Positions 1,107 through 33,199 of a DNA stretch of 40,828 nt are shown here, in pieces. The position numbers and the translations under genes are program-made. Every line of letters starts with the position of its first letter. The first letter of the stretch is position 1. Source of the stretch: Terrimicrobiaceae bacterium. Lineage in GTDB: Bacteria > Verrucomicrobiota > Verrucomicrobiia > Chthoniobacterales > Terrimicrobiaceae. The stretch spans positions 1 to 40,828 of the forward strand of contig JBIIPZ010000030.1 of NCBI GenBank assembly GCA_044342325.1. Direction: 5' to 3'. The notes below the pieces were generated by a model. It ran no database searches. It had not been told where the DNA came from and worked only from the letters and a program-made list of their open reading frames with translations.

Positions 1107-3341
1107 TCAGGCGGCTTGGAGTTTCTCGACGCGCACATGGGCGTTGTAGTCGGGCACTCCGCCGTGGGCGTCCACCACGCCTTTGCGAATGATGGTGTTT
1201 CCCTCGGGCCAATGGACCTGCAAATTCCCCTGGGCGATCGGCGCGCAGTGCACGCGGCCTTCATAGCGTCCCAGAGTATTTACAAGGGCGATCCGGTCGC
1301 CGGTCACCACATGCAAACGCGCCGCATCCTCGGGGCTCATCAGGATGGCATCACGCGGAGCGTTGTTGAGGGGATCGATCTCGGCGTAGATGAGTGTGTT
1401 GAATTGCTTGCCTCGGCGTGTGCTGACATGAAATTCGCCGGGTTTGCGGTGGAGCGGGGGAATCGCGACATTGCGGAAGTGCCCCCGGCCGTCTGTCGTT
1501 GGAAACTGCCCGTCGGCGCAAAGGTGTGGGCCGCCGTATTGAAAGGCATCACCGGTCTTCCTGAGGTGCTGGACTCCATCGTAGAAGGGGACGACCCGCG
1601 CAATTTCCTCGCGCATTTTCCAACCTGTCTCGCAGCCGAAGAGTGATGCTTTTTCGGGATAGGCCGCCAGCGCGAGGTCGCGCAGGATTTTCCATTCCGC
1701 CTTGGCCTCGCCGACCTGACGAGGAATTTCCGGGGTGAACATGACGCGTCGCTCGGTGCTCGTCTCCATGCCCCCGTCGTCCTGTTCATATCGGGTCTTG
1801 GCTGGCAACAAAAAGACCGCTTCTTGCGTTGGTATGAACATCTGATCGGTGAGGATGATGTCCTGATGCACACGCACCGGCACTCGACTCATCGCCTCCC
1901 TCACATAGTCGGGCTCTGGCAGGGTGCGGAGAAAATTTCCGCCCAGACAGTAAAAGACATCAAGCTCGCCGCGTTCGCAGGCCTCGACCATTTCGGTCGC
2001 CGGCATTCCAGGCCAATCGGGAACGGGGAAGCCGTATTCTTTCGAGAGTTTTTCGGCGTTTTCGGGAGTGATCGATTTGTTTCCGGGAAAAGCGGTGGCA
2101 TAGGCTCCCATCTCGGCACCGCCTTGCACCGAGGAGTGACCGCGGATCGGCATGACGCCGTTTTTGTCGCGGCCGATGTAGCCCCGTGCCAGAGCGAGAT
2201 TGAGAATCGTCTGAACCCCGTCGCCGCCGAACGGATGCTGGGTGATGCCCATGCTCCAGACGAGAACGGCGTTTTTTGCATCGCGGATGAGTTCCGCAAA
2301 GTCGCGCATCGCCGCGCGGTCGAGTCCGGCGTCTTTTTCCAGCGCTTCCCAGTCCATCGCCGCCACATGGGCCTTGAGTTCCTCGAATCCCGTTGTGTGC
2401 TGGTCGATGAAGTTTTGATTAACCCATCCCTCGGCGAAGAGGATTTTCATTATGCCCGAGAGGAACGCGATATCGCCGCCTTGGCTCACTGGGAACCAGT
2501 AGTCGGCGATGTTCGTGCCGAAGAGCGCGGAGTCGGCATTCGAGGGAACCCAATACTTTTTCATTCCGGGCTCGAAGTAGGGATTCACCAGAACGATTTT
2601 CGTCCCGAGCTTTTTGGATTCGTGCAGATACTTTGTGGAAACTGGTTGGTCGTTGGCGGGGTTTGAGCCGAAAAAAATCACGAGGTCGGTTCCATACCAA
2701 TCCTTGTAGCTGCAGGTCGTGGCGGCCACGCCGAGCGCCTCTTTCATGGCCGCGCCCGAGGGCGAGTGGCAAATGCGGGCCGCGTTGTCCACATGGTTGG
2801 TGCCGAGGAATCGGGCCGCCTTCTGTGCCATGTAGTAGATTTCATTCGTCACGCCGCGCGCCGTCACAAAAAACGCCATGCGGTGCGGATCGGTGGCTCG
2901 TAGCTTCGCCCCGAGGCGTTGATCGACCTCATTCCACGAAATGCGGCGAAATCCCGGCGCGCCCTTTTCGCGGACCATGGGATAGGGCAGGCGTCCCAGT
3001 TCCCGCAGTTGCGCGTTGTCCATTTTTTCCAATTTCGAGACATCAGCCAGAAGCCGCTCGTCGAGGGCGGAAACCGTGTTTAGACGCAGAAGATTCAGAC
3101 GCGTCATGCACAGATGCGGCCCCTTCACCGTCCAATCGTGCAGACCCGCCACGCCGAGCGCGCAGCCATCGCAGACGCCGCGAGTGATGACTTTCCAAGC
3201 ATAAGGAAGGTTGTCCTTGTTCTTCCAAACGACATGGAGCATGTCGCGAAAGTGCTTCGGCTTGGTGCGGCCAATGCCGAATGGCGCGCAACCCTTGAGT
3301 TTCTGAAGGAACGAACGGCGGACGGCGTGGGATGAACTCAT
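1107..3341 (-). CDS. FdhF/YdeP family molybdopterin oxidoreductase
   Basis: GVCDGCALG, RFLGTNHVDNAARICHSPS, MPIRGHSSVQG and a C-terminal STRRGKQFN molybdopterin-dinucleotide-binding domain. ATG 3341 preferred over 3359. Confidence 0.9.
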   Translation of the reverse strand: MSSSHAVRRSFLQKLKGCAPFGIGRTKPKHFRDMLHVVWKNKDNLPYAWKVITRGVCDGCALGVAGLHDWTVKGPHLCMTRLNLLRLNTVSALDERLLADVSKLEKMDNAQLRELGRLPYPMVREKGAPGFRRISWNEVDQRLGAKLRATDPHRMAFFVTARGVTNEIYYMAQKAARFLGTNHVDNAARICHSPSGAAMKEALGVAATTCSYKDWYGTDLVIFFGSNPANDQPVSTKYLHESKKLGTKIVLVNPYFEPGMKKYWVPSNADSALFGTNIADYWFPVSQGGDIAFLSGIMKILFAEGWVNQNFIDQHTTGFEELKAHVAAMDWEALEKDAGLDRAAMRDFAELIRDAKNAVLVWSMGITQHPFGGDGVQTILNLALARGYIGRDKNGVMPIRGHSSVQGGAEMGAYATAFPGNKSITPENAEKLSKEYGFPVPDWPGMPATEMVEACERGELDVFYCLGGNFLRTLPEPDYVREAMSRVPVRVHQDIILTDQMFIPTQEAVFLLPAKTRYEQDDGGMETSTERRVMFTPEIPRQVGEAKAEWKILRDLALAAYPEKASLFGCETGWKMREEIARVVPFYDGVQHLRKTGDAFQYGGPHLCADGQFPTTDGRGHFRNVAIPPLHRKPGEFHVSTRRGKQFNTLIYAEIDPLNNAPRDAILMSPEDAARLHVVTGDRIALVNTLGRYEGRVHCAPIAQGNLQVHWPEGNTIIRKGVVDAHGGVPDYNAHVRVEKLQAA

Positions 3342-3362
3342 AAAAAGAATAATCCACAAACA

Positions 3363-3378
3363 TTGACAGTCTGGTCAA
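3363..3378. promoter_or_regulatory. Candidate operator palindrome TTGAC-N6-GTCAA upstream of the FdhF/YdeP gene
   Basis: ttgacagtctggtcaa lies 22-37 nt upstream of ATG 3341. Confidence 0.25.
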
Positions 3379-3463
3379 AACATCTTTCACATGGAAAGCA
3401 GGTTATGCCAAGGCCTGATTGCTTTGGGGCTTCTGGATTATAGAAATGCGGAATTCGGAAGAG

Positions 3464-4312
3464 CTACTCGGCGAGGATTTCGTTCCAGATTTTTTTGATG
3501 TCGTTGCCGAGAACGACTGTGTCCTGCCAGATGTTCGGGAAGCAGCTCAGGTTGTAGCCGATGGTGGTGCCTTGTTCGGGCATGACCCATAGTTCGTTGT
3601 TCGGGCGTGGGCCTGCGAGCCAGTGCTTGAGGGCTTGACGGATGAACGGGCGGCAATCTTCGTATTCGGGCGAGAAGTTGCCTTTGCCGTCGGTGATCGG
3701 AATCATGCAGTGGTGGCCGTTGAATGGGCGCATGTGCCAGAGGTTCGCCTGCTGGAAGACCGGGATGTTGGATTCGTCAAAGAGGCGGGTGATGTAGTCC
3801 TTCGGGACGAGGTGCTTGACGATGGCCGGGTGCGAGAAGTCGTAGTTCATGCGGGGTGCCTGGCCTGTGGCTTTGAGGACTCCGGCCACAATGGCGGCGG
3901 CTTTTTCCGGAGTCTCGGTGCAGGTGTCGCGGTGGACTTCAAGGTGGACCAGGGCGTTCTGTTTTTTCGCCTCCGCCATCAAGGCGATCGTCAAAGCGAC
4001 AGCCTCGTCGCTTGGCGTGTCATGGTCGGCGAGTTGGCAATTGATCGGGCCGTTGTCGATGGCCATGAGAGCGGCGATTTTGGGGGCGAATTGCTCGACC
4101 CGTCCGGCGTCGAACGCCCCGCCGAACCGCAAGCCGTATTCCTTGATCAGCTCCTTGATCTTCGGGAAATCGGGCGTGCCGCAGTAGCCTTGGAAGCCGG
4201 CATCCCGGACCAGCGACAAATGGGTGCGCAGGCCCTCCTCGGTGGTGGGATCGCCTTCGTGGAGGAGCGACCAGTAGTTGATGTGGATTTTCAGGGTCGG
4301 GGCGGTAGACAT
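3464..4312 (-). CDS. Xylose isomerase-like TIM-barrel protein (sugar phosphate isomerase/epimerase family)
   Basis: AGFQG, HLEVHRDTCTETP, NYDFSHP, WHMRPFNGH and WVMPEQG supply the E/H/D/H/E metal-ligand pattern. The gene starts 16 nt downstream of the fusion gene. Confidence 0.75.
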   Translation of the reverse strand: MSTAPTLKIHINYWSLLHEGDPTTEEGLRTHLSLVRDAGFQGYCGTPDFPKIKELIKEYGLRFGGAFDAGRVEQFAPKIAALMAIDNGPINCQLADHDTPSDEAVALTIALMAEAKKQNALVHLEVHRDTCTETPEKAAAIVAGVLKATGQAPRMNYDFSHPAIVKHLVPKDYITRLFDESNIPVFQQANLWHMRPFNGHHCMIPITDGKGNFSPEYEDCRPFIRQALKHWLAGPRPNNELWVMPEQGTTIGYNLSCFPNIWQDTVVLGNDIKKIWNEILAE

Positions 4313-4328
4313 AGCAGTGCTTTCGTTT

Positions 4329-6623
4329 TTAGAATTCGTCGAAGGCGATGTGGTTTTTATCGACGCCCATGCCTTCGAGCATGGTGCGGGCGGCTTGGAT
4401 CATCGGTTGCGGGCCGCAGAGATAGTATTCCAAGGTGGCAGGGTCTTTGTGTTGGCCGAGGTATTCGCGGTGGAGCACTTCGTGGATGAAGCCGGTGTGT
4501 GAGGTCCAGTTGTCCTCCGGCAGCGGCTCGGAGAGGGCGATGTGGAATTTGAAGTTCGGGAACTTCCGCGCGAGGTCTTCGAAGTAGTCTTGATAGAAAA
4601 CTTCCTGCTTCGAGCGGGCGCCATACCAGAAGCTGACCTTGCGTCCGGTTTTCAGCGTGTCGAAGAGGTGCGAGAGGTGGGAGCGGAGCGGGGCCATGCC
4701 GGCGCCGCCGCCGAGGTAGATCATTTCGTTTTCCGTATCCTTCACGAGGAAGTCGCCGAAGGGGCCGAACGCCTTCACGGTGTCGCCTGGCTTGAGGTTC
4801 CAGACATAGGAGGACCCGACGCCGGCTTTGCAGTCCTGCCCGCGCGGCGGCGTGGCGATGCGGACATTGAAGCGGATTTGGGTGTCCGTTTTGGGATTTG
4901 TCGCGAGCGAGTAGTTGCGGCGCACCTCGGCGTGGTTCTCGGTGGCGTAGTCAAAGACATGGTTGGCCTTCCAGACGGCGTCGAATGGCGGGCGGATATT
5001 GAAGTTTTCAAACGAGATCTTCCCGTAGGCAGGGATGAACATTTGGATGTATTGGCCGGCCTGGTAGTCGAGCTTGGGCGTGTCGGGAAGAGGCTCAAGA
5101 ACGACCTCTTTGATAAATGTGGAGACATTCTCGTTGCTAACAACGCGGAAGGTGTAGGCCGTGGCGGCTTGCTTCGCGCCTTCGCCGCCGGCTTTGTAGA
5201 CATTCATAAAAATCCGGCCCTCGGTGACGCGGACCGGATAGGTTTTGAGGGCAATGCAGACCGGTGGACGCTGGGTCGAACCGTCGCGCATGTCGAAGCG
5301 GCCATTGTGTTTCGGGCACTCGATGAGGTTTCCTTTCACCATGCCGGTGGCGAGGTGCGTGTTGCCGTGGGTGCAGATGCCGTCGGTCGCGTGGTATTGG
5401 TCATCACCCGAGCGGTAGACCGCATAGGTGCTGCCGCCGTAGTCGAAGCGCAGCACATCCTCGCGCAGGAGCGCATCCACAGGGGCGACTTCGATCCAAC
5501 CTTCGGCGTCCGCCATGCCGGTTGAGACGATGGTTTTTGCCGCCTCGTTTGCTGCGGAGCGGACGGTGGGCGTCGGGAGAACGCGCTTCACAAAATAGCC
5601 GGGGTCTTTGACCTGACGCAGAACGGCGGGAATGATCTCGCTCCACGCATGGAAGATGCTGCGGTAGGGAGTCGGCATGTCGGGCTTCACGACTTCGTGG
5701 AGTTTCGGCAGGTTGTGATACGGCACCAACGGGAACATGTGGTGCTCCACATGGTAGTTCATGTTCCAATACAAAAATCGGTTGATCGGATTCATGTAAA
5801 CCGTCCGGCAGTTCATGCGGTGGTCGAGCACATTTTCAGCAAGACCGGCGTGCTGTGTGAAGCCATAGATCGGCATCATCCAGGCCCCGAGGAGGTTTGG
5901 CAGGCCGATGTAAAGAAGCGGCAGGATGCTGCCCAAATAGAAGCATGCGGCGATCACCGTGATGTAGATGGCAAGGTAAACGCGCGCTTTGAAATAAATC
6001 GCGGGACGCGCCGACTCGGGAATGTAGGTCGCCTCTTCGGCATCCAGACTGCCTGCGGCGTGGCGGAACACCTTCTTGAAATAGGCGATGGCGGCTGGGT
6101 AGCCGAGAAATGTCGTCAGAAAGCTTTTAATGCTGGCCGGGCGGGGAACGGCGATTTCGGGGTCGCGGCCAACGACAATCGTGTCGCTGTGATGCCGAGT
6201 GTGGCTCCAACGCCAAACAGTGCTCTCACGCATGACCATGAACGAGGAAATCTCGTAAAGCGCGTTGTTCATCCAATCGCTCTTGAACGCGGTGCCGTGG
6301 CTCGACTCGTGCCAGCGCGAATCCGAGGTCGTGCCGTAAATCACCCAATACGCCATGAAGGGAACCAGCGCCCAGGCACTTGGCCAGAGGAGAAATCCCG
6401 CATAGCCGAAAAGACCGAGTAGGCCGAACCAAATGATTGTGTCGCGAATGGCAGGGCCGTTTTTGCGTTCGAGCAATTGGCGCATCACATCACGCGGAAC
6501 GGGGGATTGATACCACTCCGCTTCGGCGAGGCCTTTTTCAACGGCCAGTTTGGAATTCACACCGACGAGACTGTAGTCACTCAGTTGATGGGGTTTTGAA
6601 TCGGATTCGGCAATGGCGCTCAT
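4329..6623 (-). CDS. Fusion protein: MocD-like membrane di-iron oxygenase (fatty-acid desaturase fold) + Rieske [2Fe-2S] ferredoxin (MocE-like) + NqrF-like FAD/NADH reductase
   Basis: His boxes HESSH, HTRHH, QH and HVEHH plus TM helices (aa ~1-350). Rieske CTH...CPKH (Cys417). NqrF-like RNYSLA, NVRIATPP, SSYVWNLKPGD, GGGAGMAPLRSH, WYGARS, EYYLCGP and terminal FDEF. Confidence 0.9.
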   Translation of the reverse strand: MSAIAESDSKPHQLSDYSLVGVNSKLAVEKGLAEAEWYQSPVPRDVMRQLLERKNGPAIRDTIIWFGLLGLFGYAGFLLWPSAWALVPFMAYWVIYGTTSDSRWHESSHGTAFKSDWMNNALYEISSFMVMRESTVWRWSHTRHHSDTIVVGRDPEIAVPRPASIKSFLTTFLGYPAAIAYFKKVFRHAAGSLDAEEATYIPESARPAIYFKARVYLAIYITVIAACFYLGSILPLLYIGLPNLLGAWMMPIYGFTQHAGLAENVLDHRMNCRTVYMNPINRFLYWNMNYHVEHHMFPLVPYHNLPKLHEVVKPDMPTPYRSIFHAWSEIIPAVLRQVKDPGYFVKRVLPTPTVRSAANEAAKTIVSTGMADAEGWIEVAPVDALLREDVLRFDYGGSTYAVYRSGDDQYHATDGICTHGNTHLATGMVKGNLIECPKHNGRFDMRDGSTQRPPVCIALKTYPVRVTEGRIFMNVYKAGGEGAKQAATAYTFRVVSNENVSTFIKEVVLEPLPDTPKLDYQAGQYIQMFIPAYGKISFENFNIRPPFDAVWKANHVFDYATENHAEVRRNYSLATNPKTDTQIRFNVRIATPPRGQDCKAGVGSSYVWNLKPGDTVKAFGPFGDFLVKDTENEMIYLGGGAGMAPLRSHLSHLFDTLKTGRKVSFWYGARSKQEVFYQDYFEDLARKFPNFKFHIALSEPLPEDNWTSHTGFIHEVLHREYLGQHKDPATLEYYLCGPQPMIQAARTMLEGMGVDKNHIAFDEF

Positions 6624-6722
6624 TGTTTTTGGGGTGTTAGTTGATTTTGGGATTTTATGAAGTCAGGGAGGGGATTTGCGGCTCTTTGGGGAAGGTGCGA
6701 ATCCATCCATTTGGCTTATGCG

Positions 6723-6769
6723 ACGATAGAGTGGGCTGGGATTTTGCCAATGGGCTGGAGTTCGTTAAA
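6723..6769 (-). promoter_or_regulatory. Putative promoter (TTGGCA-16-TATCGT) of the fusion gene, overlapped by tandem TGGGCTGG direct repeats (candidate AraC sites)
   Basis: TGGGCTGG at 6732-6739 and 6751-6758. Minus-strand -35 at 6750-6745 and -10 at 6728-6723. Confidence 0.3.
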
Positions 6770-6829
6770 TATGCACAAAATTCGCATTTCGACTTGTAGC
6801 TGGTTTGGGAGTGCTGCGAGAATTTCGGT

Positions 6830-7723
6830 ATGGACCCGATACCCGTGTCGCCGCGCTTGGAACTCAAATATATTTACGGCTCGGTGGTGCATTACCGTCC
6901 GGGTGACAAGCTCGCGCCGCGTTTGCTTCAGGATTTCGAGTTAGTGTTGATGATCGAGGGGACGGCCAACTACCGCTGCGGCGCGGTGGACCACAAGGCG
7001 CCGCCTGGGAGTTTGATTCTGGCTCGGCCTGGCTTTCAGGAGGCTTACAGCTGGGATACGGGAGGTGCAACGCGACATGCGTATGTGCATTTCGATATAG
7101 AGGCCATTCCTGAAGGCTGGGCGCAGCCAGATAAGTGGCCGATTCTGATTAAAAATCCCGCTCCCGTGGTCGCGCCAATGCTGCGCCACCTGCTGGGCCG
7201 TATTTCCGCCCATGGTGAAACAGCCTGGCCCACTTTGCGCGCTTGGCCAGAGGAGAGTCTTTTCATGGAGTGTCTGTTGGGAATTTTGATTCAACCCTCG
7301 CGAGACGAGGCCCTCGCCGTGGGGGACCGCTTGCCCGAGCAGGTGCACGCTTCGTTGAATTTCATGAGAGCGATCCTGGACACGAATCCTCATTACGCCC
7401 TGCAACTCGGCGAACTCTCAAAACGAGCGGGAGTCACCGAAAAACACCTCTGCCGCGTTTTCCAGACATCACTCGGCCATGCGCCCATGGAGACATTTCG
7501 CCTCCTCAAACTCCAACTCGCCATGGCCCTGCTGGGGCGATCCAGTTTGGCTATTAAAGAAATTGCCGACCGCTGCGGGTTTGAGAATCCGCTTTATTTT
7601 ACGCGATGCTTCACACGGGTGTATGGAAAATCCCCCACCGAAACGCGGCAGTCGTTGCTCAAGCAAGAAGCCCCTCCGCCGAACCCGCTGCCACCGGATA
7701 TCGCGCCGAGGATATATTGGTGA
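6830..7723 (+). CDS. AraC family transcriptional regulator
   Basis: N-terminal cupin-like ligand domain and C-terminal double HTH (LSKRAGVTEKHLCRVF; IKEIADRCGFENPLYFTRCFTRVYGKSP). Divergent from the fusion gene. Confidence 0.95.
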   Translation: MDPIPVSPRLELKYIYGSVVHYRPGDKLAPRLLQDFELVLMIEGTANYRCGAVDHKAPPGSLILARPGFQEAYSWDTGGATRHAYVHFDIEAIPEGWAQPDKWPILIKNPAPVVAPMLRHLLGRISAHGETAWPTLRAWPEESLFMECLLGILIQPSRDEALAVGDRLPEQVHASLNFMRAILDTNPHYALQLGELSKRAGVTEKHLCRVFQTSLGHAPMETFRLLKLQLAMALLGRSSLAIKEIADRCGFENPLYFTRCFTRVYGKSPTETRQSLLKQEAPPPNPLPPDIAPRIYW

Positions 7724-7725
7724 AC

Positions 7726-7753
7726 CATCCATGCAGGAGATCCCGCATGAATG
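7726..7753. terminator. Hairpin between convergent araC and gpmA
   Basis: catccatgcagga-ga-tcccgcatgaatg. The mismatches become G-U pairs on the minus strand; the U-tract is weak. Confidence 0.35.
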
Positions 7754-7786
7754 ATTTTCCGAGGTGTCTGCGGACGGGACGGGCCC

Positions 7787-8533
7787 TTACTTGGACTTGC
7801 CTTGATTGGCCACGGCGTTCATCGCAGCTGCAATGGCATCCTGGTCGCCCAGGTAGTAGCTCTTGATTGGCTTGAGATCGGCGTCGAGCTCGTAAACCAG
7901 CGGAATGCCGGTCGGGATGTTCAGCTTCAGAACCTGCTCTTCTGTGAGGTTGTCGAGATACTTCACGAGGGCGCGGAGGCTGTTGCCGTGGGCGGCGATA
8001 ATCACCTTTTTTCCGGACTTCACAGTCGGGGCGATCTTTTCATGCCAGAGCGGAAGGAAGCGATCGACAGTGTCCTTGAGGCACTCCGTAAGGGGGAGTT
8101 GGGATTCGGAGATGCCTGCGTAGCGTGGGTCGTGTCCGGGCCAGCGCTCGTCGGATTTCTCGAGTGGTGGTGGAGGAATGTCATAGCTACGGCGCCAGAC
8201 CAGAACCTGCTCGTCGCCGAACTTCGCGGCGGTCTCGGCTTTGTTGAGGCCTTGGAGCGCGCCGTAGTGGCGTTCGTTGAGACGCCAGTCCTTTTCCATG
8301 GGAATCCAGAGTTGATCGAGCTCGGTCAGAACGCCCCAGAGCGTGTTGAGGGCTCGTTTCAGGACCGAGACATAGGCGATATCGAAGGTGAAGCCCTCTT
8401 TTTTGAGTAGCTCGCCGGCAGCCTTCGCCTCGGCGCGGCCTTTGTCGCTGAGTTCGACATCGTGCCAACCTGTGAAGCGGTTTTCTTTGTTCCAAGTGCT
8501 TTCGCCGTGACGGATGAGGACAAGTTTATGCAT
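7787..8533 (-). CDS. gpmA: 2,3-bisphosphoglycerate-dependent phosphoglycerate mutase
   Basis: [43 protein letters not shown] and [12 protein letters not shown]. Start at ATG 8533 (MHKLV). Confidence 0.97.
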
Positions 8534-8636
8534 TGAGTAAAAAAGGATCGAGCGCTGGTTATAGGAAGCCCTCTGCTCCTTGGCAATTTTTACCGGCAAA
8601 AAGAGACTTTCTCATGCCGACGCAAGTGAGCGGATA

Positions 8637-10175
8637 TTAACTTTCCAGTTGAATTGGATAAATGCTGTCCGGCCCAAGCGCCTGTGATGTGATCTCCATT
8701 TGTGCCGTCTCTGCAGCGAGCGGCAAGTCGGGCGGAGCCTCAGGAATGGAGGAGGCGATTCTAAGAAACTCCTCCGCATATCGTGTCGGAGTGTGCGGTG
8801 CTTGAGTTGGCCAAGGGGTAGGGGCGAAGCGTGTGTTGCGGATTTTTGCAAGGTAAGGATTGAGGGCCTCGCAGGCTCTCCAACTCTCCACAGGCGGATG
8901 GGAGAGCACTTCCATCTGGGCGCACCGGGAGAGGCGGCTGAAGGAAAATGGACCTCTGGCATCTGCTGCCAAAACCGGAAATATCTTTTGAAATGGTAAA
9001 GGAAGATGCCCTCTCGCTGAATCGGCGAGTTGCGATTGTCGATGCATCTCCGCTTCGACATCAAAGAGCCCGGGTGCGATTTGGATGTCATTGTAAAGCT
9101 GCGGAAACTCAAAGCCCATCGCGGCGAGGTCTGGCATGACTGCTGGAATCGCTCGCGCGATGAGGGGCGTGCCGGCGGCTGCGGTCTCCACAAAGGTCAT
9201 GCCGAAGCCCTCCTGCACAGAGGTGTGCACGACCACTTCGGCAATTTGTAAGAGGTCAGCGACGCGCGGTGCGCCCGGCTTGTCGAGCAAGCCGAAATGC
9301 ACACGCCAACCGTGTTTCGCCGCCGCTTGCTTGAGATCGTGCGCGTAGTTTGCCTCGTCTTGCGAATACTGGCCGGATGTGGTGGCTAAAATCGCTTCCG
9401 GCTTGAGCCAGCGTGTGAGCAGGATGGCCTCTAGGAGGTTTTTACGTCTCAGAAAACGGGTTGGGTAAATCCACAGCGGGGCTTCGCTTTTGAGTTCCTT
9501 CGCCACCCATGCCTTGGCTGCGTCGATATTCGCCGGGCTTGATGCGGCGGGTCGCAGAACGGGGTTGGGCAAATGAAAAGCGTTCGCCGGAAAGCAGCGC
9601 TTGAGTGTTTGGAAGTCCTGCAAATTGATTCCCGCATGCACGGAGCGTGTGCCGGAGGCGAATAGGATATCGGCCGCACTGGAGAGGTCTGGGCAGCCGC
9701 ATTGCTGCAGTTCGCTCCAGCGCGCCCAGCGGCCGGCGCACCAGAAATCATGGTGATGCAAGATCAGCGCCGCGCCCGTTTCCTTCGAGATTTTCGCGAC
9801 TTCTCGGCATAGGATGGCATTGCGGGCGAGGGCGGGATTTTGAAACCAAATCAGCGTGCGAGAGGCGGCGCTGCCCTCCATTACCCGCCAGAGAGAGCGC
9901 TGAATTTTTCCCGAGATGACCTCTGGAGTCTCTGCTTGATTCGAAAAATAGTCGCAGGCCGGTTCCTGGATGAAATCGGTGGGCAAGCCGAGCGTTCCCA
10001 GTTCGGGGCGCTCGCTTTCATTTCCTCCGCTGAGCAAGGTGATCCGTTTGAGCGAGGTGCCCGCCGCTGCGGCAATGGCGGGCAGCGTTAACTCCACCAC
10101 CCTCCGGACGCCGCCCGGACGCCAGTGGTAATGAATCACCACTAGATGCTCGAATGGTATGGACGCCTTGCTCAT
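8637..10175 (-). CDS. GT-B fold glycosyltransferase (GT4-like)
   Basis: HYHWRPGGVRRVV, HHHDFW, YPTRFLRRKNLLEA and the EX7E motif SVQEGFGMTFVE. Confidence 0.8.
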   Translation of the reverse strand: MSKASIPFEHLVVIHYHWRPGGVRRVVELTLPAIAAAAGTSLKRITLLSGGNESERPELGTLGLPTDFIQEPACDYFSNQAETPEVISGKIQRSLWRVMEGSAASRTLIWFQNPALARNAILCREVAKISKETGAALILHHHDFWCAGRWARWSELQQCGCPDLSSAADILFASGTRSVHAGINLQDFQTLKRCFPANAFHLPNPVLRPAASSPANIDAAKAWVAKELKSEAPLWIYPTRFLRRKNLLEAILLTRWLKPEAILATTSGQYSQDEANYAHDLKQAAAKHGWRVHFGLLDKPGAPRVADLLQIAEVVVHTSVQEGFGMTFVETAAAGTPLIARAIPAVMPDLAAMGFEFPQLYNDIQIAPGLFDVEAEMHRQSQLADSARGHLPLPFQKIFPVLAADARGPFSFSRLSRCAQMEVLSHPPVESWRACEALNPYLAKIRNTRFAPTPWPTQAPHTPTRYAEEFLRIASSIPEAPPDLPLAAETAQMEITSQALGPDSIYPIQLES

Positions 10176-10243
10176 CGCTGCAGGCTATCATTTCCCCGGG
10201 CTTGCTCAATGCCGCTCAGGCGCTGAGAGTGGCGGGCGTCTTT

Positions 10244-11455
10244 ATGGCGGATTTTTACCAGCACGGCACGATTGCGACTCTTCATCGCCTCGGAAACCCT
10301 AACTACAAGAAACTCGAGGAGGAAATGGTCTCTCTGGCCCGCACTTCGCCTCTTGCGCTCGTGCTTCCCTGTCATGCGAGGGATTTGAACTCCACCGCTC
10401 TTGCCGCAATCGTCGCTGAGCTTCGTGATGCCCGTTTTGTGAGTTATGTCACAGTCGGCCTCGACGGGGGTGATGCGTCGGACTTCGACACGGCGCATCG
10501 GATTTTTTCCATGCTCCCGCAGCGGGTTTCGATTCTCTGGAATGATGGCCCACGCATCAAAGCCCTTCTCGCCGATCTGGTTCGCGCCGGCCTCGATCCC
10601 GGGCCAATGGGCAAAGGCCGCAATATGCGTCTCTGTGTTGGGCAGGTGCTCTCTGGCACAGACGCGACAGCCGTGGCCATCCATGATTGCGACATACTCC
10701 ACTACCGGCGCGAACTGCTCGTGCGCCTTTGTTTTCCAGTGCTCCATCCCGACATGGCGTTTCATGTCAGCAAGGGTTTCAGTGCCCGTTTTTCGACGCA
10801 GCTGAATGGTCGCGTCATGAGGCTTCTCATCACTCCTCTGCTTCGCGCGATGGAGGGCCTCGAGGGCTTCTCTGAAACGCTAGCGCCGTTGCAGTTTTTC
10901 CGCTACCCGATCAGCGGCGAGGTTTGCCTGCATCGATGCGTTGCGGAAAGCGTGAGATTCCCTTCCGACTGGGGTGTGGAAACCGGCATGATGGCAGATG
11001 TTTTTCGCGTGGCTGCCATGCAAAGAATTTGCCAGGTCGATATCGCCGAGAGTTACGACCACAAGCACCAGAGCCTCTCGGAGGGAGACCCTGATGCCGG
11101 GCTGAACAAAATGGCATGCGAGGTCGCCCTCTGCCTGTTGCGCGCCGCTGCCCTTGGAATTGCGACCACGGCATCGAATCCGTTCCAGGGCCTTGTTGAA
11201 AAATTCCGTCAAGCTGCCAAGGGCATGCTGCACTGTTACTCGGCCGACGCTCGCATCAACACTCTCAAGTTTGACGGTGAACTCGAAGCACGAACGATCG
11301 AGCTTTTTGCCGCAAGTCTTGGGCGGGCGATTTCCATTCACGAGGCCGATCCCGGCAAGCCTGCCGGAGCGCCATGCTGGCAGGAAATCGAGTCCAACTT
11401 GCCAGGCTTCGGTATCGCCCTCGCGCAGGCTGCGAGCGACTATGCGGCGCGGTGA
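10244..11455 (+). CDS. gpgS: Glucosyl-3-phosphoglycerate synthase-like GT-A glycosyltransferase
   Basis: MADFYQHGTIATLH N-terminus, GKGRN, DxD in HDCD, NGRVMRLLITPLL, RYPISGE, DWGVE and QVDIAESYDHKHQ. Confidence 0.75.
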   Translation: MADFYQHGTIATLHRLGNPNYKKLEEEMVSLARTSPLALVLPCHARDLNSTALAAIVAELRDARFVSYVTVGLDGGDASDFDTAHRIFSMLPQRVSILWNDGPRIKALLADLVRAGLDPGPMGKGRNMRLCVGQVLSGTDATAVAIHDCDILHYRRELLVRLCFPVLHPDMAFHVSKGFSARFSTQLNGRVMRLLITPLLRAMEGLEGFSETLAPLQFFRYPISGEVCLHRCVAESVRFPSDWGVETGMMADVFRVAAMQRICQVDIAESYDHKHQSLSEGDPDAGLNKMACEVALCLLRAAALGIATTASNPFQGLVEKFRQAAKGMLHCYSADARINTLKFDGELEARTIELFAASLGRAISIHEADPGKPAGAPCWQEIESNLPGFGIALAQAASDYAAR

Positions 11456-29328: not shown

Positions 29329-30843
29329 TTAGTAGCGGTAGTGCTCGGGCTTGTAGGGGCCTTCGGACGGCACGCCGAGGTATTCGGCTTGGCTCTTGGT
29401 GAGCTTGGTGAGGACGACGCCGATTTTTTCGAGGTGCAGGCGGGCGACTTCCTCGTCGAGCTTCTTGGGCAGGCGATAGACGGTGTTTTTGTATTTGTCC
29501 TTGTTCTGCCAGAGGTCGATTTGGGCGAGCGTCTGGTTGGTGAAGGAATTCGACATCACGAAGCTTGGGTGGCCTGTGGCGCAGCCGAGGTTCACGAGGC
29601 GGCCATCGGCGAGCATGTAGATGCTCTTCTTGCCGCCGGGCAGGAAGTAGCGGTCGTATTGCGGCTTGATGGTTTCGCAGCGGATGCCTTTGTGTTTCTT
29701 GAGTTCCTCGACTTGGATTTCGTTGTCGAAGTGTCCGATGTTGCAGACGATCGCTTGGTCTTTCATCGCGAGCATGTGCTGGAGCGTGATGATGTCTTTG
29801 TTGCCGGTGGTGGTGACATAAATGTCGCCGACGCCGAGCGTGCTTTCGATGGTGTTGACCTGGAAGCCCTCCATGGCGGCCTGCAAGGCGTTGATGGGGT
29901 CGATCTCGGTGACAATAACTCGGGCGCCGTAAGCGCGGAGCGAGTGGGCGCTGCCTTTGCCGACATCGCCGTAGCCGCAGACGACGGCAACTTTTCCGGC
30001 GATCATGACATCGGTCGCACGCTTGAGGCCGTCAGCGAGGGACTCGCGGCAGCCGTAGAGGTTGTCGAATTTGGACTTCGTGACCGAGTCGTTCACATTG
30101 ATAGCTGGCACGAGGAGTTTGCCTACCTCGGCGAGTTGGTAGAGGCGGTGGACGCCTGTCGTTGTTTCCTCGGAGACGCCTTTCCAAGCCTTGGCCACCT
30201 TGGTCCAGTAGCCGGGGCGCTCCTCGGCGACGCGGCGGAGGAGGGCCTTGACGACCGAGACTTCATGGTTTTCGGCGGGTTGGTAGGCCCACTTGTCACC
30301 TTTTTCGAGTTCGGCACCTTTGTGGATAAGAAGGGTCACATCGCCGCCGTCATCAACCACGAGTTGTGGGCCGAGGTTGCCGGGGAAGGTGATCGCTTTG
30401 AGGGTGAGTTCCCAATACTCTTCGAGGGTTTCGCCTTTCCATGCGAAAACTGGCGTGCCGGTCTCCGCGATGGCTGCAGCGGCGTGGTCTTGAGTGGAGA
30501 AAATATTGCAGCTGGCCCAGCGCACATCAGCGCCGAGATCAACCAGCGTCTCGATAAGAACTGCCGTCTGAATCGTCATGTGGAGTGAGCCAGTCACGCG
30601 GACGCCTTTGAGTGGCTTCTGCTTGGCGTATTTTTTACGAACCGCCATGAGGCCCGGCATTTCATGCTCGGCAACGCTGATTTCCTTGCGTCCCCAGTCG
30701 GCCAAGGCGATGTCAGAAACAATGTAATCCGCGCCCTTCGGAGTGGCTGCGGCATATTTTGCGAGATTGGCAGTCGCGGCGGTGAGTTCAGCGAGAACAG
30801 CGGCGGCGGATGCTTTTGATTTGGAAGCGGATTTGGTGGCCAT
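29329..30843 (-). CDS. ahcY: Adenosylhomocysteinase
   Basis: [69 protein letters not shown] and KPEHYRY. Confidence 0.98.
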
Positions 30844-30845
30844 AA

Positions 30846-31002
30846 GAGTTTTAAGTTTTAAGAATTAAGTTTTAAGTGGTTTTGGTTCGGGTGTTGTTGG
30901 GCTTGGGTGCGGTTTTTAGATTGGAGAGAAGAAACAAGTCTTCGGAATCAAGCGCGGCGCGGTAGCGCCAACTTAAAACTTAATTCTTAAAACTTAAGAC
31001 TC
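30846..31002. repeat. 32-bp inverted repeat built of 7-nt units (AGTTTTA/AGAATTA) enclosing a 93-nt spacer
   Basis: Left arm 30846-30877 gagttttaagttttaagaattaagttttaagt; right arm 30971-31002 acttaaaacttaattcttaaaacttaagactc; 31/32 complementary. Confidence 0.92.
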
Positions 31003-31012
31003 GTCTTTGTCC

Positions 31013-32209
31013 TTATCTCGCCGCCTTTTTCAGCGCCGCCGCTTTGTCTGTCTTCTCCCAAGTGATGTCTTTGTCTTCCTTGCCGAAGTGACCGTAGTTG
31101 GTGGTCTTGCTGTAGATCGGGCGGAGGAGGTTGAGTTGGGTGACGATGTCGGCGGGTTTGAATGAGAAGACGGATTTGACGGCTTTTTCGATGTTTTCCT
31201 CGTTCACTTTGTGCGTTCCAAAGGTATCAATATGGATGCTAACGGGTTGCGGGTGGCCGATGGCGTAGGCGAATTGGACTTCGCAGCGATCGGCGAGGCC
31301 GGCGGCAACGACATTCTTCGCGACATAGCGGCCCATGTAGGCTGCGCTGCGGTCAACTTTCGAAGGATCTTTTCCAGAGAAGGCTCCGCCTCCGTGACGG
31401 CCCATGCCGCCGTAGGTGTCGACGATGATTTTACGGCCGGTGAGTCCAGAGTCGCCTTGCGGGCCGCCAATAACGAAGCGGCCGGTTGGATTGATGAGGA
31501 ACTCGGTGGAGGCGTCGAGGAAGTCCTTCGGAATCACCTTGCGAATCACATTTGCGATCAGGAACTTGCGGATTTCCTCGATCTCGACATCTTCGCTATG
31601 TTGGGTCGAGATGACGACATTGGTCACGCGGACTGGTTTGCCGTCTTGATAGAGAACGGAAACTTGGCTTTTCGCGTCAGGGCGGAGCCATTTCACCTTG
31701 CCGGCTTTGCGGATGGCAGTGAGTTCGCGGCCGAGGCGGTGGGCGAACATGATCGGAGCTGGCATGAGTTCCGGGGTCTCGTTGCAGGCGTAACCGAACA
31801 TGAGGCCTTGGTCGCCGGCGCCTTGCTCGGCGGTGGCTTTGCCTTTGGCTTTTTTGTTATCTACGCCCTGCGCGATGTCGGCGCTCTGTGCGGTGAGGAG
31901 GTTTGAAATGAAGACGCGGTCGGCGTGGAAGACATCGTCGTTGTTCGTGTAGCCGATGCCACGGATCGCCTCGCGGATGATCGAGCCGATGTTCATCACG
32001 GAATCAAGTGCGGCGCCTTTGATTTTCGGAATGGTGATTTCACCGCCTACCACGACGGTGTTGCTTTTCACAAAGGTCTCGCAGGCGACGCGGCTGGTTT
32101 TGTCAATCGTGAGGCATGCGTCGAGCACGGCATCGGAGATGGTGTCGCAGACTTTGTCGGGATGGCCTTCGCCAACGGATTCGGATGAAAAGATGTAACG
32201 GCGTGACAT
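31013..32209 (-). CDS. metK: S-adenosylmethionine synthetase
   Basis: [48 protein letters not shown] and [15 protein letters not shown]. Start at ATG 32209. Confidence 0.98.
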
Positions 32210-32253
32210 GGGATTTATTGAGTTTGGGTTGATGTTGAGCTTTACGTATCTTC

Positions 32254-32273
32254 GCATCCGAATATATTGATAT
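32254..32273. promoter_or_regulatory. Candidate SahR operator (ATC-N10-GAT) in the 69-bp metK/sahR divergent region
   Basis: gcATCCGaatataTTGATat resembles remembered ATCAA-N6-TTGAT-type SahR boxes. Confidence 0.4.
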
Positions 32274-32278
32274 GTTCA

Positions 32279-33199
32279 ATGGCGTCAATCCTGAAATCTC
32301 TCCGTGTTTTGTCGGATCCGATCCGTTTGCGCCTGCTGTTGCTTTTGATGGAAGAGGAGCTCACGGTCGCCGAGTTGCAGGAGATACTTGGTCTCGCGCA
32401 GTCGCGCATTTCGACCAGTCTGTCACAGCTGAAACGCGAGGAGTTGGTGAAAGACCGTCGGGTGGGAAAAAACATCTTCTACTCGGTTGGGGAGGATCCC
32501 GGTGAGGCTACTTTGGCGGTTCTGGAGGCGGCACGGGCGGAGCTGAAGGAGGCCTCGGCGGACAAGGCGCACCTAGTGTTCACGCTCAAAAAGCGCAAGG
32601 ACCGCGCGGCGGATTATTTCAACAAGCTGGCGGGAAAATTTGGCCGTGCGTATGTGCCCGGCCGCTCGTGGGAGGCGCTCTCACACGGGCTTCTGCGCCT
32701 ACTGCCGCCCATGGTCATCGCGGACCTCGGGGCAGGCGAGGGGACCCTCTCGCAACTGCTGGCCCGGACCTCAAAGAAGGTCATCGCCATTGATAACTCG
32801 GAGAAGATGGTCGAATTCGGTTCCGCCCTTGCCAAGGAGCACGGGTTTTCCAACCTCGAATACCGACTCGGTGACATCGAAGATCCGCCGATCGATGCAA
32901 ACTCTGTCGATGTGGCTCTTTTCAGCCAGGCTTTGCATCATGCCGCCGTCCCACAGCGAGCTTTGAATGCGGCTCAGCGGATTCTCAAGCCTGGCGGGCG
33001 TGTGATGATTCTCGATTTGCTGAGCCATACTCACGAGCCGGCCCGCGAGCTTTACGGGCATGTGTGGCTGGGTTTTTCCGAAATCGAGCTTCACCGCATG
33101 ATGAAAAAGGCGGGGTTCTCTAAAATCGAATCCTCCATCGTCTCGCGTGAAGCAGAGGCGCCGTTTTTTCAGACCGTGCTGGCAACGGGCATGAAATGA
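32279..33199 (+). CDS. sahR: ArsR-HTH + SAM-methyltransferase-fold regulator (SahR/SamR type)
   Basis: N-terminal LSDPIRLRLL...ELTVAELQEIL..QSRISTSL and C-terminal ADLGAGEG SAM-binding motif; divergent from metK-ahcY. Confidence 0.85.
   Translation: MASILKSLRVLSDPIRLRLLLLLMEEELTVAELQEILGLAQSRISTSLSQLKREELVKDRRVGKNIFYSVGEDPGEATLAVLEAARAELKEASADKAHLVFTLKKRKDRAADYFNKLAGKFGRAYVPGRSWEALSHGLLRLLPPMVIADLGAGEGTLSQLLARTSKKVIAIDNSEKMVEFGSALAKEHGFSNLEYRLGDIEDPPIDANSVDVALFSQALHHAAVPQRALNAAQRILKPGGRVMILDLLSHTHEPARELYGHVWLGFSEIELHRMMKKAGFSKIESSIVSREAEAPFFQTVLATGMK

Follow-up and report, generated by a model that had tools for sequence, protein, structure and literature searches.

Sugars that bear O-methyl groups are closed to the ordinary routes of glycoside and sugar catabolism, and a small set of described systems frames the present analysis (the five sources named in this paragraph are cited from excerpts). 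P450ZoGa of a marine Bacteroidota (CYP236A; structures 6G5O/6G5Q) demethylates 6-O-methyl-D-galactose, releases formaldehyde, works with a dedicated ferredoxin and reductase, and is presented as the only characterised sugar O-demethylase so far (PMC6292453). In rhizobia, 3-O-methyl-scyllo-inosamine is demethylated by MocDEF (PMC13434037, citing Bahar 1998; PMC10107442), whose genes are published in the organisation mocC, mocBA, mocR, mocDEF (PMC10107442). Woody-host Pseudomonas syringae carries mocDEF followed directly by xylA2, a gene for a 278-aa 'putative xylose isomerase' (Nowell et al. 2016, PMC5132102). At the one-carbon (C1) end, formate dehydrogenases of the FdhF/YdeP family have been validated as Fdh4A of Methylobacterium extorquens and as PP_4596/PP_0256 of Pseudomonas putida, which adjoin fdhD and moaA (PMC10308882). 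Here we describe a locus from a Terrimicrobiaceae bacterium in which relatives of several of these components lie side by side. The DNA analysed, referred to as the window, is a stretch of 40,828 nucleotides (assembly GCA_044342325.1, contig JBIIPZ010000030.1), and the locus occupies its positions 1107-7723. It consists of an AraC-family regulator gene and, divergent from it, genes for a one-chain oxygenase (the fusion), for a 282-aa protein (P282) and for a molybdopterin oxidoreductase (the molybdoenzyme). We read it, with moderate confidence, as a catabolic module under AraC control whose substrate would be an O-methylated sugar, most probably a free aldose.

An earlier note on this DNA had described the four-gene order, the divergent araC, the gaps of 16 and 122 nt and the limits of the module, and the open reading frame (ORF) listing and the sequence agree with it on each of these. 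The regulator and fusion genes are separated by 206 nt, and the P282 gene begins 16 nt past the fusion stop on the same strand. The 122-nt gap between P282 and the molybdoenzyme is counted from an ATG; an in-frame TTG at 3359 would shorten it to 104 nt. The features are as follows.

6830-7723, plus strand: AraC-family regulator, 297 aa (HTH_18, HTH_AraC and AraC_binding, Pfam)
6742-6790, no strand assigned: conserved block in the AraC/fusion spacer, candidate operator and promoter (alignment of relatives)
4329-6623, minus strand: fusion, a one-chain oxygenase of 764 aa (three Pfam/NCBIfam parts)
5646-6386, minus strand: membrane di-iron FA_desaturase/MocD-like domain of the fusion, residues 80-326 (Pfam)
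5199-5498, minus strand: MocE-like Rieske ferredoxin of the fusion, residues 376-475 (Pfam/NCBIfam)
4332-5159, minus strand: NqrF-like FAD/NAD(H) reductase of the fusion, residues 489-764 (Pfam/NCBIfam)
3464-4312, minus strand: P282, 282 aa, xylose-isomerase-like TIM-barrel fold (predicted structure, fold searches)
3342-3463, minus strand: P282/molybdoenzyme spacer, 122 nt (gene coordinates)
1107-3341, minus strand: FdhF/YdeP-family molybdopterin oxidoreductase, 744 aa (TIGR01701, PF00384, PF01568)

Analysis of the fusion demonstrated three joined redox parts with their motifs in place. Its membrane domain matches PF00487 at 121.7 bits and so belongs to the integral-membrane FA_desaturase fold; the histidine boxes HESSH105, HTRHH141 and HVEHH291 of the eight-histidine motif are intact, and two long hydrophobic stretches are present. 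The Rieske motifs CXH and CXXH occur as CTH417 and CPKH436, and the flavin and NAD motifs RxYS and GxGxxP as RNYS569 and GAGMAP640. The Rieske part reaches 129.3 bits against the NCBIfam model TIGR02377 (MocE family), just under the cut-off of 136.15, and is 48% identical to a ferredoxin that PGAP names as MocE-family. The reductase part is FNR/NqrF-like (PF00970, PF00175) and matches the soluble NqrF domain 2R6H at 306 bits among PDB sequences. Against TIGR01941 (NqrF) the fusion gains 347.9 bits over a cut-off of 295, in a match limited to model positions 129-403. Homologues carry the name 'NADH:ubiquinone reductase (Na+-transporting) subunit F' in NCBI and JGI records because this model exceeds its cut-off on the C-terminal third only. 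An identity as subunit F of the Na+-NQR was considered and rejected: a true NqrF begins with a membrane helix and a plant-type 2Fe-2S ferredoxin domain and belongs to an nqrABCDEF operon, whereas here the N-terminal 485 residues are desaturase and Rieske and no nqr genes are adjacent. The NqrF label is a systematic misannotation of these oxygenases across several phyla. The three-domain architecture was seen in the best 120 of at least 7883 matching clusters of a protein collection, drawn from several phyla and named 'NqrF' or 'MocE subfamily Rieske protein'.

The kinship of the membrane domain points to demethylation. Over 345 aa it shares 54% identity (E 2e-143) with the protein in the MocD position on a Phyllobacterium zundukense plasmid, a MocD assigned by locus architecture (a desaturase-family gene between the MocR-type and MocE genes) and not by its annotated name. 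This plasmid locus holds IolE in the MocC position, two Gfo/Idh/MocA genes, a sugar-binding protein, a MocR-type regulator, the oxygenase trio, a PanB-like gene and PurU, and matches the published moc organisation. The nearest relatives of the membrane domain are encoded on rhizobial plasmids as separate genes (54-57% identity, 288 records), which are followed by a gene for a MocE-family ferredoxin and then by one for an FAD-dependent reductase. Because of this MocD-position kinship, and because MocDEF demethylates 3-O-methyl-scyllo-inosamine, the fusion is, judged by its sequence, a MocD-MocE-reductase in one chain whose reductase has been replaced by an FNR/NqrF-type domain. Such a self-sufficient MocDEF-type monooxygenase would pass electrons from NAD(P)H through the FAD domain and the Rieske centre to the membrane di-iron site; a methyl ether would be hydroxylated there, and the resulting hemiacetal would break down to formaldehyde and the sugar without its methyl group. 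Among open-access papers and preprints, none was found that deals with a fusion of desaturase, Rieske and reductase or with a sugar demethylase of the membrane di-iron kind. The genome of the window's host further encodes three or more desaturase-like paralogues that stand alone (29-38% identity; contigs C78 and C60), and one of them has an internal TAA.

P282 had been called a TIM-barrel isomerase in the earlier note, and the two halves of that name fared differently. The structure predicted from 31 sequences (pLDDT 88.3, pTM 0.88) matches xylose-isomerase-like TIM barrels in a fold database (Foldseek E 3e-7), protein-atlas neighbours agree with such a fold, and a (beta/alpha)8 xylose-isomerase-like barrel is confirmed at the level of the predicted model. 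By sequence the protein has no family match: Pfam and NCBIfam returned nothing even at E<=10, PDB sequences returned nothing usable (two matches at E 0.6-1.6 are noise), and a Pfam domain is present in 0 of the 120 P282 homologues listed. Isomerisation is only one among several reactions that this fold performs on carbonyl sugars. Four invariant residues, E125, D158, H193 and E246, fall on or immediately behind strands 122-126, 155-158, 191-194 and 240-245; they may correspond to the canonical Glu-Asp-His-Glu metal tetrad of the barrel's C-terminal face, equated by position and not by residue-level superposition. Further invariant residues are H127, C131, H161, H167, H201 and C202. By sequence clustering the family, which has no Pfam model, is small and tight, with 1950 clusters at 90% identity and 293 representatives at 50% identity among 1.84 billion proteins. 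Two assignments were rejected. Membership of PF01261 (AP_endonuc_2) by sequence fails, with the family HMM threshold not reached and no match at E<=10, and orthology to MocC/IolE fails, with an hhalign probability of only 81% over half the length against MocC/IolE of the moc locus, a relation at superfamily level. In the proposed module P282, a divergent and probably metal-dependent barrel, would take its turn on the sugar either ahead of the oxygenase or behind it, and would treat a carbonyl sugar as isomerase, epimerase, dehydratase or lyase.

Outside the phylum, oxygenase and small TIM barrel are found together again. An Acidiphilium plasmid has, behind its desaturase, MocE and reductase genes, a gene for a 273-aa 'TIM barrel protein'; the protein is a remote P282 relative (hhalign 97.5%, E 6.5e-12, 250 columns) and a borderline PF01261 member at 33 bits. 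Its homologues occur in 99 plasmid records, and in the three loci that were opened, Bradyrhizobium and Shinella included, the homologue stands within a 'sterol desaturase family + MocE ferredoxin + FAD reductase' unit, once with an AraC gene, a ribokinase and a PanB-like gene in addition. A PanB-like gene, annotated as '3-methyl-2-oxobutanoate hydroxymethyltransferase', also accompanies the mocDEF-like units of Sinorhizobium meliloti pSymB (L094), Phyllobacterium (L096) and Bradyrhizobium (L099), in one case with purU behind it, and its attachment suggests folate-linked capture of the released formaldehyde. P282 has no similarity to the PanB-like protein of pSymB.

To place P282 among its neighbours, a scan of species-representative genomes was used, which gave 525 P282 relatives; the best 80 loci, nearly all from Verrucomicrobiota, were kept, and their neighbours were scored by tblastn with query families verified by Pfam or NCBIfam. 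These 80 loci form 28 clusters at 80% P282 identity and include many close kin, so that the counts overstate the number of independent events. The fusion is present in 27/80 and lies directly upstream of P282 on the same strand in 22/80; when only the 61 loci that extend 2.5 kb or more upstream are considered, the figure is 20. An HIBADH-like dehydrogenase accompanies P282 in 25 of the 80 loci, AraC in 21, a YdeP-family gene within 10 kb in 18, FdhD in 18, an alpha/beta hydrolase in 17, molybdenum cofactor (Moco) genes in eight, a PhyH-type dioxygenase in eight, corrinoid methyltransferase components in six, RhaT in five and a P450 in three. Counted by cluster (n=28), 12 carry the fusion, six YdeP and eight FdhD. 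Of the 27 loci that bear the fusion, 19 also have an AraC gene upstream of it in divergent orientation, and several of the other eight are cut by a contig end.

Two loci hold the whole set in one string. L025 reads, co-directionally after the divergent AraC, fusion-P282-HIBADH-hydrolase-FdhD-RhaT-YdeP, and L056 has a P450 and AraC, then mutarotase-fusion-P282-HIBADH-hydrolase-FdhD-YdeP, followed by a corrinoid protein and MtaB. L077 reads P282-HIBADH-hydrolase-FdhD-YdeP on a contig that breaks off immediately upstream of P282. In L016-18 and a genome of the same genus (G243), AraC (79% identity) diverges from a different fusion (57-60%), which precedes P282 (92%), MoeA, MoaC, MobA/MoaD, MOSC/FdhD, in part MoaA, and a canonical YdeP; in the same-genus genome that YdeP lies 6 kb downstream, past the Moco and FdhD genes. 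Five Opitutaceae loci replace the oxygenase with a corrinoid set, reading AraC, then URO-D methyltransferase-corrinoid protein-MTHFR-MeTr-RACo-three small genes-P282-canonical YdeP (917.8 bits), after which come a Gfo/Idh/MocA gene, an FGGY kinase and RhaA. The three small co-directional genes (about 183, 174 and 115 aa; L057:8542-9974, also in L058, L061 and L064) between the RACo activase and P282 gave no Pfam or NCBIfam match, and may be the missing substrate-specific parts of the corrinoid methyltransferase system. Seven Roseibacillus/Akkermansiaceae loci have P282-FdhD. The P450 of L056 scores 378 bits against 6G5O/6G5Q, the 6-O-methyl-D-galactose demethylase, and at most 148 bits against all other P450s among PDB sequences; copies about 70% identical to it stand in L040 and L045. 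In other loci a PhyH-type dioxygenase is directly upstream of P282, and mutarotase, RhaT, RhaA, FGGY kinase and fucosidase genes occur near P282 loci.

The last gene of the module encodes a likely formate dehydrogenase. The molybdoenzyme clears the TIGR01701 cut-off of 582.15 with 642.8 bits and matches two Pfam models, PF00384 (127.5 bits) and PF01568 (29.5 bits), and all 12 of its PDB sequence matches at E<=1e-20 are formate dehydrogenases or YjgC. Its 'ARICHS' aligns with 'ARLXHS' and 'ARLCHA' of two formate dehydrogenase structures (Cys-His dyad), and its 'PIRGHSSVQG' with 'PLRGQNNVQG' (catalytic Arg); the (Se)Cys-His dyad and the Arg presumably have the roles described for FdhF. It is the sole TIGR01701 match in its own genome and, by sequence comparison, a divergent FdhF/YdeP member and likely a formate dehydrogenase. 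It would oxidise formate at the end of the C1 branch. Residues 8-14 (RRSFLQK; window 3300-3341) form a good twin-arginine (Tat) consensus with no hydrophobic stretch after it, which could be a relic Tat signal or a chance match.

Genes for the maturation of this enzyme were located just outside the window. Two relatives (91-93% nucleotide identity) are collinear with window positions 8536 to 127 and then with positions 48542 to 41869 of contig C42 of the same genome, which indicates that the window start abuts the end of C42. Read from the window, C42 carries MoaA, MoeA, MoaC, a MOSC-FdhD fusion, an MBL-fold (GloB-like) hydrolase, an HIBADH-like dehydrogenase, a second P282 and an aldose 1-epimerase. 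The MOSC-FdhD protein matches TIGR00129 at 164.6 bits (cut-off 140.9), so that the maturation gene associated with FdhF/YdeP enzymes is at hand, and the molybdoenzyme would be matured by FdhD and these Moco genes. The second P282 (L092, C42:38449-47586) is 42% identical to that of the window and lies with the dehydrogenase and the hydrolase about 12 kb from the window module. Window and C42 together form a supercluster of about 25 kb with all components of the long operons in a different order. PurU is encoded in the same genome, and the C1 unit would be carried to formate, possibly by a folate route ending in PurU. In related metagenome-assembled contigs (L013, L014 and L015), a P282 of the window type (94-95% amino-acid and 89-90% nucleotide identity) is found together with the last 24 nt of the fusion gene, placed directly after MBL hydrolase and HIBADH genes; the P282 cassette seems, from these sequences, to have shifted between the fusion and the MBL/HIBADH contexts.

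The company that P282 keeps can also be taken to mean that it belongs to a one-carbon disposal unit and not to sugar chemistry. In this unlikely account, P282, the HIBADH-like dehydrogenase, the alpha/beta or MBL hydrolase, FdhD and YdeP travel with any methyl-removing enzyme and carry its C1 unit (formaldehyde, a hemiacetal or other adduct, or methanol) through formate to CO2, P282 acting on the C1 adduct while the sugar is processed elsewhere. P282 does stand beside four mechanisms (di-iron fusion, CYP236A-like P450, PhyH-type dioxygenase and corrinoid methyltransferase set), and it occurs with FdhD/YdeP and no oxygenase in the seven Roseibacillus/Akkermansiaceae loci, in L030 and in L077, the last being cut upstream. 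A dehydrogenase, a (thio)esterase-like hydrolase and a formate dehydrogenase mirror thiol-dependent formaldehyde oxidation, and canonical FlhA and FghA of the glutathione type were not found in the window's own genome (86% complete). In real moc operons the PanB-like hydroxymethyltransferase gene after mocF, followed by PurU, implies that C1 handling is built in. However, Bradyrhizobium sp. 172 has both a PanB-like and a P282-like gene, which argues against a simple replacement of one by the other; the P282 of the window lacks an adjacent dehydrogenase and hydrolase, these being the ones near the second copy; and the corrinoid route yields methyl-folate instead of formaldehyde. By analogy, the structural relatives of P282 favour sugar chemistry, while its constancy across demethylase types suggests C1 handling. 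A more far-reaching and doubtful extension makes the P282 family the hub of modular methyl-ether removal and C1 burn-off, mainly in Verrucomicrobiota, with a new P282 reaction common to all four systems; P282 might then either capture or convert the leaving C1 unit or act on a shared keto-sugar intermediate, within a new formaldehyde-to-formate route.

Within the catabolic module proposed here, oxidative O-demethylation of a methylated aldose is the best supported chemistry for five reasons: the oxygenase is kin to a known demethylase component; P282 recurs beside three other kinds of methyl-removing or hydroxylating enzyme, one of them close to the characterised sugar O-demethylase; the neighbours are of sugar type (mutarotase, RhaT, RhaA, kinase, fucosidase); C1 genes (PanB-like, PurU) stand in real moc operons; and FdhD and YdeP repeatedly lie within the same gene strings.

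Control of the locus by its regulator is suggested by both the protein and the spacer. The AraC protein carries HTH_18 (196-274, 71 bits), HTH_AraC and AraC_binding (24-128), the domain set of the AraC/XylS family with its double HTH at the C-terminus and its cupin-type ligand domain at the N-terminus. About 49 nt at 6742-6790 are invariant or nearly so in five of five aligned relatives while the flanking intergenic sequence varies, and the block includes the TTGGCA hexamer of a sigma70-like match on the minus strand (6750-6723, 9/12), a -35-like element for the operon genes; it is a candidate operator and promoter of the operon. In the P282/molybdoenzyme spacer no terminator-like site was found on the minus strand, a weak sigma70-like match lies at 3378-3349, and no unusual RNA fold is predicted for 3342-3463 (z -0.66). 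RNA-library contigs from four freshwater metatranscriptome runs, each from a different study, match the fusion and P282 at 93-99%, and those of two runs (X1 and X2) also match parts of the molybdoenzyme gene. One contig (X5 record 24) spans 4074-4400, the fusion/P282 junction, and another (X2 record 10) covers 3320-3523, which takes in the whole spacer and 21 nt at the start of the molybdoenzyme gene. Most of AraC and positions 6961-8120 have no cover, and these holes are not evidence. Co-transcription of the three genes would be compatible with this arrangement.

Several results weigh against the demethylation module. Among 301 Verrucomicrobiota genomes, the window's own included and kin not independent, 27 full-length fusion genes occur in 22, and P282 is adjacent to only five of the 27 (five of the 22 genomes: G000, G243, G198, G237 and G171). 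A second full-length fusion in the window's own genome (C27:12660-14936, L093; 62% identity) has an AraC neighbour and is followed by genes for an NHL-repeat protein, a 675-aa uncharacterised protein and an MFS transporter. No partner family lies within reach in 18 of the 80 P282 loci, some of them on short contigs, and the relatedness of those loci inflates every count. The corrinoid-type loci would release no formaldehyde, which obscures the role common to all P282 contexts. No formaldehyde-to-formate enzyme was identified within the module, and that FlhA and FghA were not found in the 86%-complete genome counts here as well. The molybdoenzyme is divergent, at 643 bits where canonical verrucomicrobial YdeP proteins score 870-970, and is only 28-30% identical to the YdeP of other modules; it abuts the Moco gene cluster and could simply belong there. 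RNA contigs from relatives show that the genes are present in RNA libraries and cannot show a single transcript. Members of the oxygenase family also hydroxylate and desaturate, the case for demethylation being made by MocD kinship and context.

This last point leads to an alternative that we regard as improbable: the oxygenase would act as a C-H hydroxylase or as a desaturase, its substrate being non-methylated (for example a lipid-like compound, a cyclitol or a 6-deoxy sugar attacked at its C6 methyl), P282 would process the product, and the molybdoenzyme would be an unrelated neighbour from the Moco cluster. The FA_desaturase/AlkB superfamily mainly hydroxylates or desaturates, most fusions occur without P282 or YdeP, and a fusion family of at least 7883 clusters in several phyla surely has many substrates. 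Deoxy-sugar genes (RhaT, RhaA, fucosidase) are found near P282 loci, and YdeP is set apart from P282 by 122 nt with a weak promoter-like site while adjoining MoaA, MoeA and MoaC. On the other hand, among characterised proteins the closest relative (54% identity) is a component of a demethylase; methyl groups are also indicated by the presence of P282 beside a CYP236A-like sugar demethylase and beside corrinoid methyltransferases; and YdeP and FdhD stand within the fusion-P282 string of L025 and L056 and after P282 in L077, where the contig is cut upstream.

Chance adjacency of four unrelated genes with no common pathway is very improbable. The gene order around P282 is highly variable, and close orthologues of the window YdeP (95-98% identity) are adjacent only in five near-identical genomes, as chance would allow. 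Against this, the same functional set recurs in non-orthologous versions, in several lineages and in tight co-directional strings, and no terminator lies between the genes. P282 (E<=1e-20) was found in 19 of the 301 genomes, all of the window's class, and TIGR01701 in 30 of 301, usually as one copy; the latter is present in 14 of 19 genomes with P282 as opposed to 16 of 282 without it. Within the best-sampled family 11 genomes have both, three and three have one only, and nine have neither. We estimate the chance of a TIGR01701 gene lying within 10 kb of a given gene at well under 1% per genome. In a quick P282 tree the contexts are much more strongly clustered than after shuffling. This tree implies at least 7-11 changes of the fusion context and departs from taxonomy, a mismatch consistent with a mobile module as far as sequence can tell.

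The earlier note had made its reading depend on P282 and FdhF/YdeP being co-conserved with the fusion. The outcome favours that reading: the association proved recurrent (22/80 and 18/80 loci, and the strings of L025 and L056) and at the same time facultative (5/27), and such facultative links describe a modular catabolic system and not a fixed complex. Membership of the FdhF/YdeP gene, which had been considered the weakest link, gains support from context, as FdhD/YdeP lie in the same gene strings (L025, L056 and, from P282 onward, L077). Methyl-ether stripping likewise gains from its context (MocD kinship, P450, corrinoid set), while the remaining steps, isomerisation and C1 disposal, are in part putative. 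The idea of an undescribed pathway has to be narrowed, in that MocDEF demethylation was known and mocDEF with a 278-aa partner had been noted in Pseudomonas syringae; the coupling to FdhD/YdeP is new.

The surroundings of the module are mostly of another kind. A convergent gene at 336-1037 on the plus strand (233 aa, without family, full-length 97-98% conservation in three relatives) is probably the first real one to follow the molybdoenzyme, which would then be the last gene on its strand here. An ORF at 110-751 on the minus strand was set aside as a low-complexity, probable antisense shadow of that gene, and another at 7751-8410 on the plus strand as a probable antisense shadow of the histidine phosphatase gene at 7787-8599 on the minus strand. 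Past AraC come the histidine phosphatase, a GT4 glycosyltransferase, a GpgS-like gene and housekeeping genes. The first three are grouped at 7787-11455 (phosphatase and glycosyltransferase on the minus strand, the GpgS-like glucosyl-3-phosphoglycerate synthase on the plus strand, the last at 250 bits and below its cut-off of 700), and the group might belong to the making of a compatible solute or primer of the glucosylglycerate type. S-adenosylhomocysteine hydrolase, SAM synthetase and an ArsR-fused SAM methyltransferase stand together at 29329-33199; as far as seen, this is an ordinary methyl-cycle cluster with apparently no relation to the demethylase module.

If the demethylation reading is true, a second demethylase type, widespread, membrane-bound and self-sufficient, exists in Verrucomicrobiota, which are major polysaccharide degraders of lakes and seas, and thousands of 'NqrF'-labelled proteins need renaming. 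The P282 family would gain a role, as might xylA2 of Pseudomonas syringae, and FdhF/YdeP enzymes would gain a physiological context in the burning of demethylation-derived formate. For biocatalytic demethylation the module would also supply a compact oxygenase that is encoded by a single gene.

Comparison with known systems shows both how closely the module follows them and where it departs. Natural fusions of AlkB with rubredoxin or ferredoxin, which act on alkanes, belong to the same membrane di-iron superfamily; unlike these, the present protein has a Rieske ferredoxin and a flavin reductase both fused to it and stands in a context of carbohydrate catabolism. With Fdh4A and PP_4596/PP_0256 the molybdoenzyme shares TIGR01701, a single large molybdopterin subunit and FdhD and moa genes alongside. 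Those enzymes oxidise formate from C1 compounds, a role proposed for the window enzyme from its sequence; it differs from them as a divergent branch just above the cut-off (643 bits) with the N-terminal RRSFLQK. The CYP236A system is linked to P282 by a close homologue of its P450 in three P282 loci (L040, L045, L056), but it uses a soluble haem enzyme in place of a membrane di-iron protein with fused redox partners, and no P450 is encoded in the window. The mocDEF-xylA2 pair of Pseudomonas syringae has the same two-part architecture as fusion and P282, likened by description only; its oxygenase is encoded by three separate genes, and the excerpts of PMC5132102 report no formate dehydrogenase link. 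MocDEF of Rhizobium, Sinorhizobium and Phyllobacterium resembles the module through 54% identity at the MocD position, a MocE-like Rieske ferredoxin, a xylose-isomerase-fold partner (MocC/IolE there) and C1 genes (PanB-like, PurU) in or near the operon. There, however, the oxygenase is made of three polypeptides instead of one 764-aa chain, MocF is of the glutathione-reductase type (Pyr_redox_2 and Reductase_C in alpha-proteobacteria) instead of the NqrF/FNR type, and the regulator is MocR instead of AraC; P282 is no IolE/MocC orthologue, and MocR-, MocA- or MocB-type genes were not found among the window genes. The host here is a freshwater verrucomicrobium, and mutarotase genes suggest an aldose, not a cyclitol, as substrate. 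MocDEF-type demethylation, P450 sugar demethylation, YdeP-type formate dehydrogenases and the pairing of mocDEF with a small TIM barrel were known before, whereas the one-chain oxygenase with its NqrF-type reductase, the P282 family and its fold, its several demethylase partners and the coupling to FdhD/YdeP are new.

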